Of a DNA stretch of 64,000 bases, positions 1-5,745 are shown in pieces; within the stretch, counting starts at the first letter, position 1; every line of letters starts with the position of its first letter. The DNA comes from a phage: the sequence record OZ556245.1, one strand, 5' to 3'. The notes beneath the pieces were generated by a model. The model did no database searches and was not told the origin of the DNA. It was given only the letters and a program-made list of their open reading frames with translations. The position numbers and the translations under genes are program-made.

Positions 1-262
1 CAATAGTGCGCGCGAGCTGAGACCGACGTTGACGAATATGACTTAGAACTGCACTGAATCCTTGTTTAGAACGCTGATTACCTACATAAAATCGTGCAGA
101 TACGCATGAACCATATGAACCATCGAATTCGCTTATTAAAAAGTAAAATCCAGGTTTAGATAAAATATCTTTGTGCGGAGTTCCCAAAAACCATTCACCG
201 CCCTTGATTGTACCAATAACAGTAGCACCTGCATTATTCAGATCAGTAACAGTCATGTATTT
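1..262 (-). CDS. hypothetical protein, N-terminal portion only (ORF runs off the window start)
   Basis: ATG near 262 preceded by GAGG Shine-Dalgarno; open reading frame continues to position 1 on minus strand; not in ORF track because incomplete. Confidence 0.4.
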
Positions 263-324
263 CATATTAATTTCCTCTAATTATTTTCTACTCCAAGGCC
301 GCATGAATACACACGGCCGATAAA

Positions 325-540
325 TTAATCGTCGCAGTCGACGCTCAATTCCCAGAACTCTTCTACGGTATAAGTTTCAGTATCATTTTCAATACAGAAA
401 CGTTCATTACTGTTGTTTGCTAAAGTAGCATTAACTGTCATTTTCTCGCTAGTGCTCTTAAGAGGTGAAATACGAATTAACTGATCACCACTATCTAAGC
501 AAAAAATTTCGCCAACTTTTACATCTTTAAAAATTTTCAT
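325..540 (-). CDS. hypothetical small protein (71 aa)
   Basis: ORF track; GAGGTG SD upstream; packed between neighbors. Confidence 0.5.
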   Translation of the reverse strand: MKIFKDVKVGEIFCLDSGDQLIRISPLKSTSEKMTVNATLANNSNERFCIENDTETYTVEEFWELSVDCDD

Positions 541-548
541 AATTCACC

Positions 549-659
549 TCAGGGAGTATAAAATCCAAATGCAGTTGTTGACCATCCCATCCAATACGGA
601 AAATTTGCACCGACGTAAAACATGAGAATATAAAACCAACCACTCAATAAATTCATCAT
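549..659 (-). CDS. tiny hydrophobic peptide (36 aa)
   Basis: hand-translated; ATG overlaps stop of upstream gene (ATGA); strongly hydrophobic; below ORF-track size cutoff. Confidence 0.3.
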   Translation of the reverse strand: MMNLLSGWFYILMFYVGANFPYWMGWSTTAFGFYTP

Positions 660-853
660 TTTACACCATTCCAAATTGTTTCAACCACAGATTTTAAGCC
701 ATTTTGATGAATGTCCATTCCGACAACTGCCATCAAATAAATTCCAACTACAACTGAACCTAAGGCAAAAATCAGCATGAAAATGAATAAAGCCGGAAAA
801 ATATTATCGAAAAACCATTCAATAAATGTAAAAGCACTGCGTTTACGCTTCAT
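656..853 (-). CDS. small membrane protein (about 65 aa)
   Basis: ORF track 656..874 trimmed to internal ATG with GAGGAAA SD; hydrophobic segment. Confidence 0.45.
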   Translation of the reverse strand: MKRKRSAFTFIEWFFDNIFPALFIFMLIFALGSVVVGIYLMAVVGMDIHQNGLKSVVETIWNGVK

Positions 854-860
854 ATTTTCC

Positions 861-974
861 TCACATAAATCCAAAGTAAGCGTTTAATACATCAATCATT
901 AAAACGATTGGGAATATACTCAAAACTACTAGTATTATAACTACATTCCATATAGCTTTAACAATCTTTTTCAT
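861..974 (-). CDS. small membrane protein (37 aa) downstream of conserved promoter-leader cassette
   Basis: ORF track 861..1070 trimmed: N-terminal part is translation of promoter/leader; true ATG follows GGAGGAACAGAAA leader. Confidence 0.4.
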   Translation of the reverse strand: MKKIVKAIWNVVIILVVLSIFPIVLMIDVLNAYFGFM

Positions 975-1248
975 TTTCTGTTCCTCCGTAGTTGATAGTT
1001 GTATAGTACCACAAAGGAACAGTCTTGTAAACAACTTTTTAAAAATATTCGTAATAAATGTGAATACCAATCACCACTGCCGAAACTTGTGCAACCCACC
1101 ATGCACAAGCAATAAGTACAGAATTCAAAATTTTCATAATAACCTCATTACAAAAGTAAATGTTAAACAAATTAATGGAATACTAACTAACCAAACAAAA
1201 CACCACCACAATGAACTCATAGTTCAATCTCAACGATTTTCATTTTAC

Positions 1249-1455
1249 TCAATAATCCGCTAAAAGATCGACGATTGTATCACGAAGACATTTATTCGCG
1301 ATACGTTTAAGAGCAATTTCAGTTTCTGGAGCATTTTGAATAATCATTGAATTCAATTCAGCTTCAGCAAACTGAAGTTCTTTAACTAATTCAGCTTTAT
1401 ATTTTCCTTGCCCTTTCTTAGCTTTTGCTCGTTTTAATTCAGCTGTAGTAAACAT
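1249..1455 (-). CDS. hypothetical small protein (68 aa)
   Basis: ORF track trimmed from TTG to ATG immediately after conserved leader GGAGAATAAA. Confidence 0.5.
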   Translation of the reverse strand: MFTTAELKRAKAKKGQGKYKAELVKELQFAEAELNSMIIQNAPETEIALKRIANKCLRDTIVDLLADY

Positions 1456-1487
1456 TTTATTCTCCAAATCCGTATCAGTTGATAGTT

Positions 1488-1519
1488 GTATAATACCACA
1501 GTCCTTGTGGTATGTAAAC
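1488..1519 (-). promoter_or_regulatory. early promoter (GTTTAC -35, TGGTATTATAC -10) with conserved leader
   Basis: reverse complement reads GTTTAC-17 nt-TGGTATTAT; copy of repeated promoter-leader cassette. Confidence 0.55.
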
Positions 1520-1536
1520 CATTTTGTGAAAATTTT

Positions 1537-2094
1537 TTAAATGGAAAGATACCATCCGTTGTAGTTGCTTTTTCTTACAACCTTACGAAGGTCTTCTCTA
1601 TCACCGATGAACTTCGGAGTGTACTGGATGACACCTGGATGAATTTCTTTAGTGTTGAATATAATTATACAGTCAGCGACCTGATGATTCAGAATGGGCC
1701 CTAGATTTATTCCAGAACCGTATGGATACTCTCCGCTGCATCCTGTTGTTACAGAAATCCAACGCGAGTCAGTTTGATGTGTCTTAACTTCTACGCGAAG
1801 CCCGCAGTATCTTGGATGCGCCAATACATCCCATGCGTATGTATACGGGTCATTAACATCCTCTTGGCCTTTGTTAACATACCCGCTTAGCCAATCTGCT
1901 ACAAAAAACTCTGCGTACACCGCGATACGACATCTTTCAATAACTTCTGCTTTATCCTGGTTCGGGTTTTGTTTTAAAGAGTATCTTGCTGTATCAGCAA
2001 TTTTGACCTTCATTTCACTAGTCAAGTCACTGTTCGATAGGGTAAATGTCGGAATCTGAAATAGTCTCTGTAAACCCGGATTCGTTTTCTGCAT
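1537..2094 (-). CDS. denB: endonuclease IV-like protein (T4 DenB position and length, 185 aa)
   Basis: position two genes downstream of rIIB and exact T4 DenB length; no catalytic motif verified; 5' end overlaps upstream ORF by 68 nt so start may be an internal Met. Confidence 0.55.
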   Translation of the reverse strand: MQKTNPGLQRLFQIPTFTLSNSDLTSEMKVKIADTARYSLKQNPNQDKAEVIERCRIAVYAEFFVADWLSGYVNKGQEDVNDPYTYAWDVLAHPRYCGLRVEVKTHQTDSRWISVTTGCSGEYPYGSGINLGPILNHQVADCIIIFNTKEIHPGVIQYTPKFIGDREDLRKVVRKSNYNGWYLSI

Positions 2095-2356
2095 TTAGAC
2101 TTTCCTTTTTACCGCTGAGATAAGCGTTATATACTTTAAGAGTGCCGTAATAAATTCGGTCATTTTCATCTAAAGACTCACGGTCAAGTTCATCGAGTTC
2201 CTTTTTATCCATGACTATAACATCATTGCAGTAAAGAAACCCAAGTTTTTCGTGACCAAACTCAAATTTATTGCAGTACACAATATTAGCGTGATGATTT
2301 CCGTGTAGATTAATCTCTTTTATGTCGGAATCACCGATATTCATACAATAAATCAT
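2027..2356 (-). CDS. hypothetical protein (109 aa)
   Basis: ORF track; overlaps denB 5' end. Confidence 0.45.
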   Translation of the reverse strand: MIYCMNIGDSDIKEINLHGNHHANIVYCNKFEFGHEKLGFLYCNDVIVMDKKELDELDRESLDENDRIYYGTLKVYNAYLSGKKESLNAENESGFTETISDSDIYPIEQ

Positions 2357-2374
2357 AATTTTTCCTTAAAACAA

Positions 2375-2392
2375 AAGGGCCGAAGCCCCTTA
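2375..2392 (-). terminator. UUCG-tetraloop hairpin, terminator-like
   Basis: GGGGCUUCGGCCC stem-loop followed by U-rich tract on transcript. Confidence 0.5.
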
Positions 2393-2394
2393 TT

Positions 2395-2589
2395 TTATTT
2401 GAATTGTGCAATTCTTTTTTCTAAACAATCTGCGTAAGATTTCATTGAGATGAATTGTGAAAGCAGTAATTCTTGCTCAACTTCATTAATCATTAGAAAC
2501 TTTGTGCTTTCTAAAAATTTGCTCAGTGCATTAATTTTGAGCATTAATTGATCGTATTCTTCTTTTACTCGTGCTTGATAACCTAACAT
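2395..2589 (-). CDS. hypothetical small helical protein (64 aa)
   Basis: ORF track; SD AAGGAAAA upstream; flanked by UUCG hairpins. Confidence 0.5.
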   Translation of the reverse strand: MLGYQARVKEEYDQLMLKINALSKFLESTKFLMINEVEQELLLSQFISMKSYADCLEKRIAQFK

Positions 2590-2602
2590 AATTTTCCTTA
2601 GT

Positions 2603-2620
2603 TAAGGGCCGAAGCCCTTA
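2603..2620 (-). terminator. UUCG-tetraloop hairpin at rIIB stop
   Basis: AAGGGCUUCGGCCCUU overlapping rIIB stop codon. Confidence 0.45.
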
Positions 2621-3556
2621 TTTAAATTGTTCAGTAACGTCTTCAACTACTTCGTATTGGCAGGTACGCATTTTAGCATCGTTGTAATCAATCGGAATTG
2701 ATACTACATCACGCGGATGCACTTTAACTTTTACAACTCGACTGGTTGAACTGCCAAAGTGACGAATATAAGATTTAGAACACACATGCAGACCACGAGA
2801 ACAAGTTTGTGTATCATCGTCATTCACACGAGTACGTGGCATTTTAACTACTTTACCAGGACTGTTATCAAAAGTATTTGAATGACAGTCAAAGTAATTG
2901 CTGCGAACTACTTTCCAAGCATAGAAGTAGCCATCTTCTGTAATTTCAATATCGTTTGCTACCAAGAAATCAAAGAGTCGAGATACCGCTTTTTGGCTTG
3001 GGTTTTCCAACAGATTTTCCAAGAACGGAAAATAAAATTCAAAGTTTTCGCCTTTTTCCATCGAATCGAGAATACGATCAACTAAACCAGACCGCAATTC
3101 AATATTTTGATAGAACAAGCTTCCACCTTCAATTCGAACATCACCGGAAATATATTTTTCAACGGCGCGACGAACATTAATTTTTTGTGCCGCTTCTTCC
3201 AATTTATCTGCAACAAGCAGATTAAGAATTTCCTGGAAGTTTGAATGAGTATTAGGAGTTGCGTTATAAGTTACACCATCAACAGTAATTGAAATGAATT
3301 TTTTAGATGCATTCCAAATAATGTCAGATTTAGCAACTGGAGCGATAGTTGTATCGCTATTAACTTTAACCGTAATGTCACCGCTAATGGTAACTTTGGA
3401 ACGCTCAGCTTCTTCAGCATTTTTCAAAACACGACGGATTGTGTCAACCGATACACCTTGCCAATCAGCCAATTCCTGTTGGGTGTAATTACCACTTGAA
3501 TACAGTTTGACAATTTCAGCTTGTTCGTTTTTGGTCAGGCATTTAATATTGTACAT
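2618..3556 (-). CDS. rIIB: rIIB protein (membrane-associated rapid-lysis / exclusion protein)
   Basis: 312 aa, same length as T4 rIIB, immediately downstream of rIIA. Confidence 0.85.
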   Translation of the reverse strand: MYNIKCLTKNEQAEIVKLYSSGNYTQQELADWQGVSVDTIRRVLKNAEEAERSKVTISGDITVKVNSDTTIAPVAKSDIIWNASKKFISITVDGVTYNATPNTHSNFQEILNLLVADKLEEAAQKINVRRAVEKYISGDVRIEGGSLFYQNIELRSGLVDRILDSMEKGENFEFYFPFLENLLENPSQKAVSRLFDFLVANDIEITEDGYFYAWKVVRSNYFDCHSNTFDNSPGKVVKMPRTRVNDDDTQTCSRGLHVCSKSYIRHFGSSTSRVVKVKVHPRDVVSIPIDYNDAKMRTCQYEVVEDVTEQFK

Positions 3557-3567
3557 AATTTTCCTTA

Positions 3568-5745
3568 TTAGGCCGCAAGGGCCTTCATAGTTTTAGCGAT
3601 TTGGGAAACTTCATCATCACTTAAAGAGTTGCGATAACCGATGAAGTCGGAAACAATACGGAATTTCTTGGTAAACTCAGCAACCATTTTATCACTGTTT
3701 TTTGAAGCATTATTTGATAATACATCAAAAAGATTAGTTACTGTCCAGATGTCATGACCGATGGTACCTTTTCCACCGTTGAAATATATACCCTGCAATG
3801 AACTAACCATATTACCAAGGCGAGTATATTCTTCAGAAACTTCATCTACACTGAAGTACTTCATCATAAAATCTAACTCAGGATACTTGATAATTTTATC
3901 AATATATCGTTTAGCTGAACTTGAATAACCTACATACTTATCATAATCTACAGCATCAAAAGCATCTACATATAAATCACGTAGAGTTTCAAAAATACAT
4001 TGGCACTGACCGAGTTCTTTTACCTTTTTCTGCAAAAGCGGACGAATAACATAAAATTCATTAATGCCAATAAGATTAGCCATACGAGTCAAAATACTCG
4101 TAGATGGATGACAAAGCGATGTAGTACCATCCATAGAGAAAATATCAGAACGATGCATGTATGCTACATAACCAGTAATTTCATCTGCTTCTGATGTGAG
4201 TGTAAACAGTTCCTCTTTTTCCCAGCGTCCGTCTTTAATTTCAAACTTAAATGCAGTAGCAGCTTTAGGACGAGGAGCTTTACTTTTAACTACCTTCGGA
4301 ATATAACTTTTAACTAAAGCTTCAATTTCTGACAAATAATGAATGTTAACTTCATCACTTTCAAACATCGCAATAATATCAGGAAGTAAATCAATCTGCG
4401 ATTCTACTTCCGGGTTAATAAACAGAAGACGCTCATTATGATGAATATTTAAAGTGTTATTAAATTCACTATCATCTAACGCATGTGCTAATCCACGGAC
4501 AATATTAACACGATTTTTAATATCATCAATAACGATATTAATTTTTGTTGTATTAATACCGAACAGACGATAGCTTGATGCAACGGCTGAAGTTTCATGG
4601 CTTTGCTTAATGCGTTTCAGTCGAGGGTCAAGATTTACTTCATACACAACCCCTGCATTACATAACTTACTATCAGGTTCAAACATGCTCTGCATCTTCT
4701 TATATGACAAATTTTTAGTCGTGAATTTGACTGAATTACTAATCATATAATCTCGAGCAGAATACCCCATCTTCATCAATTCGCGATATGTGTGACGAGG
4801 AGATGTAGATTCTTTAAATCGTTTTACATCTTCATTAAATGCTTGCTCACTAAGTTCTTTAACTCGTTCAATAATATTTTTACGAGTACGATCATCCAGT
4901 GAAAGAGCCTCGCGAGATGGAGCAATATCAAGTGAACCCATTGGAAACTTAATGTAATTCACTTCATTACGAATGCTTAGCCAGTTACGCTCTCTAATAA
5001 CACCATCAATAGGATAAACAATACCGCCATAGATGGCATACAATCCACCACGATCAGGCCAATATCTTTCTGGATTTACGCCATAGTAGTCATCAAAATC
5101 CGGAAAATAATCAATTTCACGGTCAAGACCATTGATGATAGCCAAATCTTTGAATGGCCGCATGATATAAGAAACTTCATAAGCAAAGTTTCTAAAGTCT
5201 TTTTCTTCAACTGGAACTACGATTTCAATACCAGTTTTATCATCTGGGCCCATTTCTTTTACAAATGTAGGTTTAATTTGTGGACCATCGCCATCCATAT
5301 AAGCTACATAACCACGAATTTCGCCTTTATGATACGAAGTAATACTAAACGTATCAGTATAACTAAATGGAGATTTAGAACCTAAACCAAATCCGCCAAT
5401 GAAATCGTTGGATTCGGCTTTAGATGAACTGAAGTATGAATTATACAGACCAGGAGAATTATCATCACCTTGAATATCAAAATCGCTCATACCCGGACCA
5501 AAATCTCGGCAAACAAATCGCGGATCTAATCGTCCTGGAACTTGAATGATAAATTTTTCATGATTTCCATTGAGAGCATGGGCGTCAATCATGTTGGTAA
5601 TCAATTCACGGACTACTGCGCGAATCTTGTTTGTATACAAATCAGATGACAGAATTTTAAATACTTTAGGAGATGCTGTGATGCTAAATGCTTTTGATTT
5701 AGAACCATTACCAAGAATTGTTTCTTTTTCAGTGGTGATAATCAT
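3568..5745 (-). CDS. rIIA: rIIA protein with N-terminal GHKL-type ATPase fold
   Basis: 725 aa as T4 rIIA; Bergerat N-box ELITNMIDA and DFGPGM G1 box near N-terminus. Confidence 0.9.

Follow-up and report, generated by a model that had tools for sequence, protein, structure and literature searches.

Small hydrophobic early genes between denB and ndd of a T4-like phage correspond to T4 ndd.2 to ndd.6 and probably encode accessory inner-membrane proteins

The DNA described here, called the window below, is a stretch of 64,000 nucleotides (sequence record OZ556245.1) that belongs to a Tequatrovirus, i.e. a T4-like genome. Among 639 matching phage records 455 span at least 80% of window positions 1-3600, which show the gene order rIIB-denB-...-ndd, and the DenB protein of the window is 98% identical to that of T4. 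On the minus strand, flanked by denB and by ndd.1 and ndd, positions 549-1220 hold five tandem open reading frames (ORFs) that start with ATG and encode 28 to 65 amino acids. Judged by sequence and gene order, these are the orthologues of T4 ndd.6, ndd.5, ndd.4, ndd.2a (together with ndd.3) and ndd.2, as annotated in NC_000866. They occupy the same position as in T4, in the same order as T4p270-T4p275 and on the early counter-clockwise strand, with the same two early promoters. Every one of the five peptides matches a PHROG family over its whole length (E-values from 5.6e-17 to 3.4e-30), and by our own count 34/36 residues of ndd.2, 34/37 of ndd.4, 31/32 of ndd.5 and 26/28 of ndd.6 are identical to the T4 peptides. 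Unlike in T4, ndd.2a and ndd.3 are here a single intact ORF of 65 amino acids, an additional ORF of 68 amino acids separates ndd.6 from denB, and an ORF of 109 amino acids is found upstream of denB. The genes ndd.2 to ndd.6 are already known: they have been part of the T4 annotation for decades, are members of PHROG and Pfam families, and have been covered by recent genome-wide screens.

The ndd.6 orthologue (1134-1220, minus strand; T4p275) encodes a single hydrophobic helix of 28 amino acids, MSSLWWCFVWLVSIPLICLTFTFVMRLL, that matches PHROG 8851 with an E-value of 5.6e-17. It is intact in 19 of the 20 Tequatrovirus loci that we compared; in one IMG/VR locus 2 nt have been inserted at its end. 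Its homologues in VR26, MY742 and PHB12 keep the motif W..(I/V)W..SIP..C. The ndd.5 orthologue (1039-1137, minus strand; T4p274; PHROG 5011, E 3.9e-26) encodes the 32-amino-acid peptide MKILNSVLIACAWWVAQVSAVVIGIHIYYEYF, which is exactly the second of two peptides quoted in a first-pass annotation of this DNA. It is intact in all 20 loci, and its tblastn matches are confined to Tequatrovirus. On inspection, residues 8-11 of ndd.5 (LIAC) resemble a lipobox. We rejected a lipoprotein, since a typical lipoprotein signal is longer than the ten residues that precede the cysteine.

The ndd.4 orthologue (861-974, minus strand; T4p273; PHROG 3098, E 3.1e-21) encodes 37 amino acids, MKKIVKAIWNVVIILVVLSIFPIVLMIDVLNAYFGFM, with a basic N-terminus followed by one predicted transmembrane (TM) helix. 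Across the 20 loci only 4 sites vary in its 114 nt. Homologues with 55-61% identity occur in Gaprivervirus and Enterobacter phages, and the Marfavirus genomes have clear relatives with an invariant P.V..ID motif.

The longest of the five, ndd.2a/3 (656-853, minus strand; 65 amino acids; PHROG 2401, E 3.4e-30), was absent from the list of ORFs in the first-pass annotation. It belongs to the Pfam family DUF7248 (PF23906), the equivalent of PHROG 2401, which it matches over residues 6-63 with 71.9 bits against a gathering cutoff of 27. Its basic N-terminus (MKRKR) is followed by one long predicted TM helix and a conserved C-terminal tail of about 20 amino acids (NGLKSVVETIWNGVK) that is presumably periplasmic. 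The family as a whole has a short basic N-terminus, one TM helix and the tail ..NGLKSV(V/I)E.IW(N/E)G in common with ndd.2a/3. We see no difference of note between the two, and the label 'periplasmic protein' on some source entries is a prediction only. An alignment of 22 diverse members shows that G52, K54, W61 and G63 are invariant. The AlphaFold model of ndd.2a/3 is helical throughout, with helices at residues 4-17 and 19-64 and a mean pLDDT of 80. DUF7248 reaches about 100 protein clusters, whose named members are T4-like phages, while the two metagenomic members that we examined both lie within phage-like strings of genes. In phage T2 the gene has a stop at codon 45, and the T4 reference sequence carries a frameshift at codon 2-3 that may be an error. 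In phage Sf25 the TM segment of ndd.4 is naturally fused to the tail of ndd.2a/3, which argues that the two peptides share a topology.

The last of the five, the ndd.2 orthologue (549-659, minus strand; T4p270; PHROG 4135, E 5e-24), encodes 36 amino acids, or 35 from the second ATG; the first ATG is ATA or ATT in 7 of the 20 loci. The other peptide quoted in the first-pass annotation can be identified with this ORF, although it had been quoted in truncated form. The product (MMNLLSGWFYILMFYVGANFPYWMGWSTTAFGFYTP) is rich in aromatic residues, without any charged residue, and is not strongly hydrophobic. It is frameshifted in one locus (slur02), and homologues carrying G.N.PYW.G are present in MY742 and Klebsiella phage Potts1.

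Two T4-type early promoters, recognized as matches to the promoter consensus, are present in this region, both on the minus strand. The one at 1490-1518 (TTTACA, 17 nt, TG-TATTAT) would drive orf68, ndd.6 and ndd.5. The other, at 1003-1031 (TTTACA, 17 nt, TG-TACTAT), would drive ndd.4, which is the first gene on its 3′ side, and then ndd.2a/3, ndd.2, ndd.1 and ndd. The two correspond to promoters annotated in the T4 record X75802, and a 60-nt repeat is common to both promoter regions. The upstream early transcript would begin with orf68 (1249-1455, minus strand; RB32ORF266c-like, PHROG 4535), which encodes a hydrophilic protein of 68 amino acids that is annotated in relatives and lies outside the hydrophobic peptide set. 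Downstream, the neighbour on the ndd.4-ndd.2 transcript is the ndd.1 orthologue (325-540, minus strand), which encodes a soluble protein of 71 amino acids. In T4 the ndd.1 product has been detected among the early proteins (PMC9697503 supplement). The peptide ORFs had been described as preceded by Shine–Dalgarno (SD) sequences; these are clear for ndd.4 (GGAGG), ndd.2a/3 (GAGG) and ndd.5 (GAGG) and weak for ndd.6 and ndd.2. Two pairs of genes, ndd.6/ndd.5 and ndd.2a/3/ndd.2, have ATGA stop/start overlaps.

The first-pass annotation had proposed a cluster of tiny hydrophobic ORFs at 540-1250, and the cluster is real. Five ORFs are present, with hydrophobic stretches of TM length, although 'strongly hydrophobic' describes four of them rather than all. 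The best 19-residue Kyte-Doolittle values are 2.29 for ndd.6, 2.18 for ndd.5, 3.05 for ndd.4 and 2.71 for ndd.2a/3, each with a hydrophobic segment of sufficient length to span a bilayer, whereas the aromatic-rich ndd.2, at 1.16, is borderline. Lysine and arginine are few or absent in the peptides. We compared the region with 2000 dinucleotide shuffles, counting hydrophobic ORFs that begin with ATG and run to 26 amino acids or more. The shuffled sequences held a mean of 1.2 such ORFs, and five or more occurred with P = 0.0015. The observed ORF coverage of 665 nt, a figure that includes a sixth, overlapping and probably spurious ORF across the promoter, was reached by none of the 2000 shuffles.

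The cluster had also been described as lying below the threshold of ORF callers. This holds for the automatic annotations of relatives, which skip one to three of the ndd.2-ndd.6 genes, but the T4 reference annotates all of them. Across hundreds of GenBank records the annotation of these genes is inconsistent or wrong, with genes missed and a spurious overlapping ORF called. For example, an ORF of 45 amino acids at 971-1108 is a CDS in some relatives; we judge it spurious, as it overlaps the early promoter and the pattern of substitutions does not follow its frame. Some records carry labels such as 'outer membrane protein', lipoprotein or 'naphthalene 1,2-dioxygenase', which we discount for peptides of 28-37 amino acids that have no domain match in Pfam or NCBIfam; the labels stem from old localization predictions and annotation transfer. 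The NCBIfam search of the peptides returned nothing meaningful. A scan of window positions 1-3600 against Rfam (E-values up to 1) matched no RNA family, and nothing therefore points to an RNA gene in the region.

Are these reading frames maintained by selection? We counted substitutions in the 20 Tequatrovirus loci, taken from GenBank and IMG/VR (the IMG/VR scan having given 5 loci); the loci are related, and the counts are thus not of independent events. Pooled over the genes, the annotated frames have 48 synonymous and 38 non-synonymous changes; the same ratio becomes 25:61 and 10:76 when the other sense frames are read. The variable sites are distributed over the three codon positions as 30:11:56. 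This pattern is one of purifying selection on the reading frames. A score nearly as good (43:43) is obtained for the antisense frame with the same third positions, and the assignment of the strand therefore rests on the promoters, the SD sequences and the orientation of the neighbouring genes. Individually, the synonymous and non-synonymous changes number 22 and 13 for ndd.2a/3, 13 and 10 for ndd.2, 8 and 5 for ndd.5, 4 and 6 for ndd.6, and 1 and 4 for ndd.4, next to 20 and 6 for the neighbour ndd.1. Compared with modern T4, ndd.2a/3 has 6 substitutions, all of them synonymous. Within Tequatrovirus, the changes in ndd.6 and in ndd.4 are too few for selection on either gene to be evident by itself, and these two are supported by their conservation across genera.

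All the peptides except ndd.5 have homologues beside ndd in Gaprivervirus, Mosigvirus, Marfavirus and an Enterobacter phage. In these other genera the peptide motifs are kept at 40-60% identity, where the DNA either is about 72% similar, within a short stretch only, or shows no similarity that could be detected. The frames are thus conserved both within and between genera, and the ORFs stand where a lack of conservation had been named as grounds for dropping them. That said, the distribution is patchy by genus, and the lesions in T2, slur02 and one IMG/VR locus indicate that individual genes can be lost.

Information on expression and fitness comes from T4. The RNAs of ndd.2 to ndd.6 are classed as early (PMC9697503 supplement 4), a class measured in T4 only, and all five proteins went undetected in an LC-MS study of the T4 proteome, for which its authors blame their small size (PMC9697503). 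A literature search found no ribosome profiling of T4. The genes were non-essential or without effect on fitness in CRISPRi-ART (PMC11879866 supplement 15) and in HIDEN-SEQ (bioRxiv 10.1101/2025.11.20.689424 supplement 7).

Our preferred reading, which we consider likely, is that this T4-type set encodes small proteins of the host inner membrane, most probably accessory modulators directed at the host. Two sigma-70 early promoters would transcribe the cluster in the first minutes of infection, and the peptide genes would share their mRNAs with ndd.1 and with ndd, the gene for nucleoid disruption. Translation would proceed from the genes' own SD sequences or through stop/start coupling, from ndd.6 to ndd.5 and from ndd.2a/3 to ndd.2. 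Such coupling suggests that the products of each pair might form hetero-oligomers. The peptides would then most likely enter the inner membrane, each with one hydrophobic helix of membrane length. By the positive-inside rule ndd.4 and ndd.2a/3, the two peptides with basic N-termini, would be oriented N-in/C-out, and ndd.2a/3 would display its conserved amphipathic tail on the periplasmic side. Once there, the peptides most likely modulate inner-membrane proteins or lipids, and would serve neither structural nor essential functions of the phage. We also considered a role of the peptides in anchoring Ndd to the membrane and set it aside, because Ndd made from a plasmid is sufficient by itself to disrupt the nucleoid.

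Bacteria encode comparable proteins. The small inner-membrane regulators AcrZ, MgrB and MgtS and the type I toxins TisB, Hok, Ibs and Ldr are likewise 20-65 amino acids long with a single hydrophobic helix, and they act by binding membrane proteins or by perturbing the bilayer. By analogy, the ndd.x peptides would be expected to act in one of these two ways. They differ from the bacterial examples in being phage-encoded, promoter-driven early genes with no known antisense RNA partner, and none of the five matches the Hok/Gef, Ldr, TisB, Ibs or holin families in Pfam or NCBIfam.

What, then, might they act upon? One possibility, to which we give a low but real probability, is that each peptide is a 'monkey wrench' for counter-defence or host takeover, binding and inhibiting a particular host inner-membrane protein (e.g. 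a transporter, a protease or an effector of abortive infection that acts on the membrane) and mattering only on hosts that carry the target. This would suit genes that are conserved yet non-essential on laboratory strains, that are patchily distributed among genera and that have the host-interaction genes rIIA/B, stp and ac as neighbours. The region is also hyperplastic, consisting of early-promoter cassettes whose content differs between close relatives (PMC4122927). Against it, one conditional comparison in HIDEN-SEQ, which covered few conditions, gave no significant change for ndd.2 to ndd.6 (q = 1.0; bioRxiv 10.1101/2025.11.20.689424), and there is no known target or homology.

The best functional lead for a target is the stimulation of phosphatidylglycerol (PG) synthesis after T4 infection, which is lost in deletions covering the interval. 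The deletion sa-delta-9 removes the genes from 52.1 to denB (52.1, ac, stp, ndd, ndd.1-6 and denB); the phage is viable, at 50% of the wild-type rate, and its stimulation of phospholipid and PG synthesis is virtually abolished (PMC6071114). The partly overlapping rII-delta-DD2 also loses PG stimulation, several products of the deleted interval are predicted membrane proteins according to the authors, and the effect needs protein made within 5 min (PMC6071114), to which the early peptide transcripts would be suited. At least one peptide could be the T4 determinant that raises PG synthesis. It might target a membrane enzyme at the PG/phosphatidylethanolamine (PE) branch point directly, or its effect might be an indirect result of a disturbed bilayer. 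We regard this as rather unlikely. The phenotype has been mapped to a multi-gene deletion (about 13 genes in about 3.4 kb) and not to ndd.2-ndd.6 themselves, and the peptides show no homology to a lipid enzyme or regulator in Pfam or NCBIfam. Ac and gp52.1, also predicted membrane proteins, are encoded in the same interval. Together with Stp they resemble the ndd.x peptides in being tiny, early, non-essential and removed by the same sa deletions of the rIIB-52 interval. They differ in lying downstream of ndd, outside the window, and Ac (acridine sensitivity) and Stp (activation of PrrC) have known phenotypes, where the ndd.x peptides have none. The earlier suggestion of membrane perturbation is in keeping with the loss of PG stimulation, but is limited by the same multi-gene mapping.

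The first-pass annotation had also raised superinfection exclusion, in which peptides in the inner membrane would block DNA entry or receptor function for later phages. Exclusion proteins are typically located at the membrane and expressed early, as the ndd.x peptides would be: T4 Imm and Sp, which are made early, and HK97 gp15 are small phage proteins that act at the inner membrane or periplasm. The DUF7248 tail motif GLKSVVETIWNGVK also resembles a tandem repeat unit of siphophage tape-measure proteins, IK(S/T)x(I/V)ETVWNGIK (hmmsearch E 1.6e-6, summed over 9 repeats), which would fit a decoy against incoming tape-measure proteins. However, we treat this as a motif resemblance and not as homology, since hhalign gives a probability of 5% to one match of 14 columns; the matched proteins carry PhageMin_Tail (PF10145; P0012, P0016). 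Nothing links the peptides to exclusion: they have no similarity to Imm, Sp or an exclusion family (Pfam and PHROG, E-values up to 0.1 or 0.01), no Pfam match to holin or toxin families and no known exclusion phenotype. Imm and Sp, moreover, already account for the exclusion shown by T-even phages. We therefore think this role improbable.

Finally, the ORFs might not encode functional proteins and might exist only because the sense strand between the promoter cassettes is rich in T, being retained through hitch-hiking with ndd and denB or only to hold ribosomes on the mRNA. We consider this highly improbable. In its favour, a T content of 40% biases the strand towards hydrophobic codons, none of the proteins has ever been detected, knock-down and insertion give no phenotype and lesions occur occasionally, but the excess of synonymous and third-position changes, the silent differences of ndd.2a/3 from T4, the motifs kept across genera, the invariant DUF7248 residues and the shuffle test all speak against it.

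In summary, five co-expressed, cross-genus-conserved and immediate-early membrane peptides that have no loss phenotype in the laboratory would be typical of the accessory 'dark matter' of T-even phages. A bolder proposal, which we put forward as a long shot, is that a T4 phenotype long without an assigned gene is explained by the action of at least one ndd.x peptide on a specific target in the host. In its most concrete version the ndd.x cluster would be the determinant of early PG-synthesis stimulation. In a more speculative version, a presumed periplasmic helix of the DUF7248 protein might mimic the WNGIK repeat found in the tape-measure proteins of siphophages, thereby hindering the DNA entry of competing phages. 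A practical by-product of this work is that faulty ndd.x annotations have been exposed in hundreds of GenBank records. If a peptide does control host phospholipid synthesis or membrane defence, this would supply the gene for a phenotype first reported in 1968-69, and a small peptide tool would be gained.

The small hydrophobic ORFs lie in a locus shared by many T4-like phages. In total 639 phage records, mainly T4-like phages of Escherichia, Klebsiella and Shigella, match positions 1-3600 of the window, and for 455 of these the match spans 80% or more of that interval, mostly with 90-98% identity. Every gene in the region is on the minus strand. Going by the annotations of relatives and T4, rIIB (2618-3556) comes first in the direction of transcription, followed by denB.1 (2395-2589), a 109-aa RB32ORF268c-like ORF that T4 lacks (2027-2356), denB (1537-2094, 98% identical to T4 DenB) and the 68-aa orf68 (1249-1455). 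Five small ORFs of 28 aa (1134-1220), 32 aa (1039-1137), 37 aa (861-974), 65 aa (656-853) and 36 aa (549-659) come next, and downstream of them are ndd.1 (325-540) and, at positions 256-1, the 5′ part of ndd. This gene order identifies the five as T4 ndd.6, ndd.5, ndd.4, ndd.2a together with ndd.3 (here ndd.2a/3) and ndd.2. The T4 reference NC_000866 lists them (T4p275-T4p270, ndd.6 to ndd.2) as 'hypothetical predicted membrane proteins'; the feature is already known and annotated, and is not new. The 109-aa ORF overlaps the first 68 nt (2027-2094) of the full-length 185-aa denB ORF, and denB is annotated in relatives from an internal Met (158 aa).

The first-pass annotation had pointed to several small hydrophobic ORFs here, which is borne out well beyond chance. 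For ndd.6, ndd.5, ndd.4, ndd.2a/3 and ndd.2, respectively, the GRAVY values are 1.75, 1.26, 1.80, 0.85 and 0.61, and the best 19-residue hydropathies 2.29, 2.18, 3.05, 2.71 and 1.16; ndd.2 has 12 aromatic residues and no charged ones. When hydrophobic ATG ORFs of at least 26 aa were counted in 2000 dinucleotide-preserving shuffles, the mean was 1.2, the probability of at least five was 0.0015, and the observed coverage by such ORFs was attained in 0 of 2000. Reading the ORFs as small membrane peptides is reasonable. The N-termini of ndd.4 and ndd.2a/3 are basic (+3 and +4 over residues 1-10), suggesting an N-in/C-out orientation. The SD sequences claimed for the ORFs hold for ndd.4 (GGAGG), ndd.2a/3 and ndd.5 (both GAGG), and are weak for ndd.6 and ndd.2. 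The starts of ndd.5 and ndd.2 overlap the preceding ORF's stop as ATGA, which suggests that they may be translationally coupled. Residues 8-11 of ndd.5 (ORF 1039-1137), LIAC, match the lipobox consensus; a lipoprotein was rejected, as the 10 residues before the Cys are too few for the usual signal peptide.

The minus strand carries two T4-type early promoters, at 1518-1490 (TTTACA, 17 nt, TATTAT, with TG) and 1031-1003 (TTTACA, 17 nt, TACTAT, with TG). Both are inside a 60-nt direct repeat (954-1013 and 1441-1500) and match the two annotated in the T4D record X75802. Their positions make ndd.4 the first cistron of one early transcript and place orf68, ndd.6 and ndd.5 on the other. Comeau et al. 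described the locus as a site where T4 and phage PST swap small genes by way of early-promoter/stem-loop cassettes (PeSLs) (PMC4122927). Gene content differs among close relatives in the presence of a 264-nt ORF and of orf68, which fits PeSL gene exchange. The 264-nt ORF (RB69ORF270c-like; 2721-2984 in locus L001) lies between ndd.6 and orf68 in the closest relatives; it is missing from the window (site at about 1221-1248), and T4 has neither ORF. Variation of this cassette-like kind, beside repeated early promoters, is what the PeSL model describes. Several GenBank records also annotate a 37-45-aa ORF across the early promoter (971-1108, minus strand, in the window; loci L013, L016, L019 839-952), which overlaps ndd.5 out of frame and at times replaces the real ndd.4 or ndd.5. 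The substitution pattern does not follow its frame, and on that ground the ORF is probably spurious.

We aligned the window with 19 Tequatrovirus loci (n = 20). None of the 20 has a disrupted ndd.4 or ndd.5, and ndd.6 is intact in 19, with a 2-nt insertion near the end in one locus and an in-frame extra Trp in one. The 65-aa ORF is intact in 18; codon 45 is a stop in T2, and 1 nt is deleted in the T4 reference. In ndd.2, slur02 has a frameshift and an in-frame 12-nt deletion occurs once; since ATA or ATT replaces its first ATG in 7 of the 20 loci, translation probably begins at the second Met. When the five ORFs are pooled, the annotated frame has 48 synonymous and 38 non-synonymous substitutions, the +1 sense frame 25 and 61, and the +2 frame 10 and 76; these counts come from related sequences and are thus not independent events. 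Variable sites are distributed 30:11:56 over the codon positions (chi-square against uniform about 32). The antisense frame with common third positions scores nearly as well (43 and 43), therefore the strand assignment rests on promoters, SDs and neighbouring genes. Nothing can be concluded from ndd.4 (4 variable sites) or ndd.6 (4 synonymous, 6 non-synonymous) taken singly; in the 65-aa gene all six differences between the window and a modern T4 assembly are synonymous third positions. As judged from these comparisons, the ndd.x reading frames are under purifying selection.

Conservation across genera is stronger evidence than these counts. By tblastn, ndd.4 matches 596 records, including Gaprivervirus and Enterobacter phages (55-61% identity) and Edwardsiella phages; ndd.6 matches 662, with Mosigvirus at about 50-54% and weak E-values; and ndd.2 matches 519, among them 25 Klebsiella phages at about 44%. 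The 65-aa protein matches 500 records, 7 of them below 80% identity, and the matches of ndd.5 are confined to Tequatrovirus. The VR26 locus encodes MSSKNWCLIWVLSIPMICVCFSLLITA (unannotated), MKKLLKAIWNMFVLFVVLSIFPIVFMIDHVRVYFNYFF and a 68-aa DUF7248 protein with C-terminal NGLKSVVDVIWNGAKQ. Enterobacter phage MY742 has peptides like ndd.6, ndd.4 and ndd.2, Mosigvirus PHB12 has one like ndd.6, with the same kind of ATGA overlap between its stop and the following small ORF, and Marfavirus Potts1 has ndd.4-like and ndd.2-like peptides immediately upstream of ndd. Conserved motifs are P.V..ID (ndd.4), W..(I/V)W..SIP..C (ndd.6) and G.N.PYW.G (ndd.2). At the DNA level these genera are similar only in a short stretch over ndd.4 (about 72% identity), so it is the proteins that are conserved. 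The first-pass annotation had proposed frame conservation in related phages as a check, and it is found, both in the pooled 48:38 and in these homologues. Upstream of ndd in VR26 (2128-2274 of its locus) and MY742 (2248-2373), a 41-48-aa Cys-rich, zinc-ribbon-like peptide (CYECGK...H..C) sits among the tiny membrane-peptide genes; the window has no counterpart. Many records, loci L001 and L018 among them, give implausible names to these 28-65-aa peptides: ndd.4 appears as 'naphthalene 1,2-dioxygenase', for instance, and ndd.5, ndd.6 and ndd.2a as 'outer membrane protein' or 'periplasmic protein'. Such labels derive from old localisation predictions, not data.

The 65-aa protein scores 71.9 bits against DUF7248 (PF23906). 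Searching 1.84 billion representatives with this profile gave 27 matches, among them 21 small full-length proteins (47-76 aa). An alignment of these 21 with the window protein shows a common architecture of a basic N-terminus, one TM and a tail (E/x)I.(E/x)NGLKSV(V/I)E.(I/V)W(N/E)G, with G52, K54, W61 and G63 invariant. A word-indexed search with the alignment returned 103 clusters, the named ones being T4-like phages. The surroundings of two metagenomic members resemble early or replication regions of phages: each sits in a row of small genes on one strand, next to DNA ligase, PTH2 and ThyX for the first member and a UvrD helicase for the second. AlphaFold predicts helices at 4-17 and 19-64 with a kink at Pro20 (mean pLDDT 80). 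In Shigella phage Sf25, gp120 (P0007, 62 aa; precomputed families PF26889 and PF23906) naturally joins the N-terminus and TM of ndd.4, in frame, to the DUF7248 tail, implying that ndd.4 and ndd.2a/3 would share one membrane topology. In T2 (PV648363.1, locus 600-734) a GGA-to-TGA stop at codon 45 removes the conserved tail and keeps the TM part.

In NC_000866 and the older X75802 one G is missing in codons 2-3 of this gene (ATGAAGCGT to ATGAACGT, window 845-853), which yields the annotated pair 'ndd.3', an out-of-frame 26-aa ORF and PHROG singleton, and 'ndd.2a', from internal Met26. The 198-nt ORF is intact in the modern T4 assembly (OZ209057.1), the window and 17 other loci, and the T4 annotation used in HIDEN-SEQ likewise gives 198 nt. 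The annotated ndd.3 probably arose artificially, through a 1-nt error or a stock polymorphism.

In T4 the ndd.x genes are early at the RNA level and non-essential. RNAs of ndd.2, ndd.2a, ndd.3, ndd.4, ndd.5 and ndd.6 were classed as early; Ndd and Ndd.1 were detected as early proteins, none of ndd.2-ndd.6 was given a protein class, and P39249 (Ndd.4 in the supplement) was cited as too small for LC-MS (Wolfram-Schauerte et al., PMC9697503). All six annotated ORFs were 'Not Fit' in CRISPRi-ART, meaning no fitness effect of knock-down (PMC11879866, supplement 15), and in HIDEN-SEQ all were non-essential, with 86-100% of TA sites hit (bioRxiv 10.1101/2025.11.20.689424, supplement 7). We propose that the ORFs would be translated, that their products would insert as single-pass inner-membrane peptides and that these may act as accessory factors on host membrane components.

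Several roles could follow. The sa-delta-9 deletion, which removes 52.1, ac, stp, ndd, ndd.1-ndd.6 and denB, still permits production of viable phage, at 50% of the wild-type rate, and virtually abolishes the stimulation of phospholipid synthesis after infection; PG stimulation is also lost in the partly overlapping rII-delta-DD2 (Kutter et al., PMC6071114). The same authors described the ndd.1-6 products as unknown and several products of the interval as thought to be membrane proteins. Because PG stimulation is the only phenotype mapping over ndd.x, a lipid or membrane-perturbation role, the latter already put forward in the first-pass annotation, is the leading specific hypothesis, albeit a distinctly unlikely one. 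Placed after it is a conditional counter-defence or host-target role, which as a broad class we consider rather unlikely; the one conditional HIDEN-SEQ comparison gave q = 1.0 (bioRxiv 10.1101/2025.11.20.689424, supplement 7).

Superinfection exclusion, also suggested at first pass, is very doubtful. PHROG, Pfam and NCBIfam searches of the peptides gave no match to Imm/Sp, holin, type I toxin, lipoprotein or enzyme families, and family membership is supported for the ndd.x PHROGs and DUF7248 only. The DUF7248 profile also matched four 820-976-aa proteins (P0012, P0016, P0020 and P0025) through 5-10 repeated stretches, and two of these are tape-measure proteins since they carry PF10145 (PhageMin_Tail). 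Their tandem units, IK(S/T)x(I/V)ETVWNGIK, resemble the DUF7248 tail motif GLKSVVETIWNGVK. The summed hmmsearch E-value for the repeats is 1.6e-6; hhalign aligned just one 14-column segment, at 5% probability. We distrust homology here; an amphipathic-helix motif common to both probably explains the likeness, which would serve as the basis of a speculative exclusion model only. That the ORFs are non-functional, as the dispensability in T4 might suggest, is extremely improbable beside the purifying selection on their frames.

What remains of interest is the role of this conserved battery of immediate-early membrane peptides.
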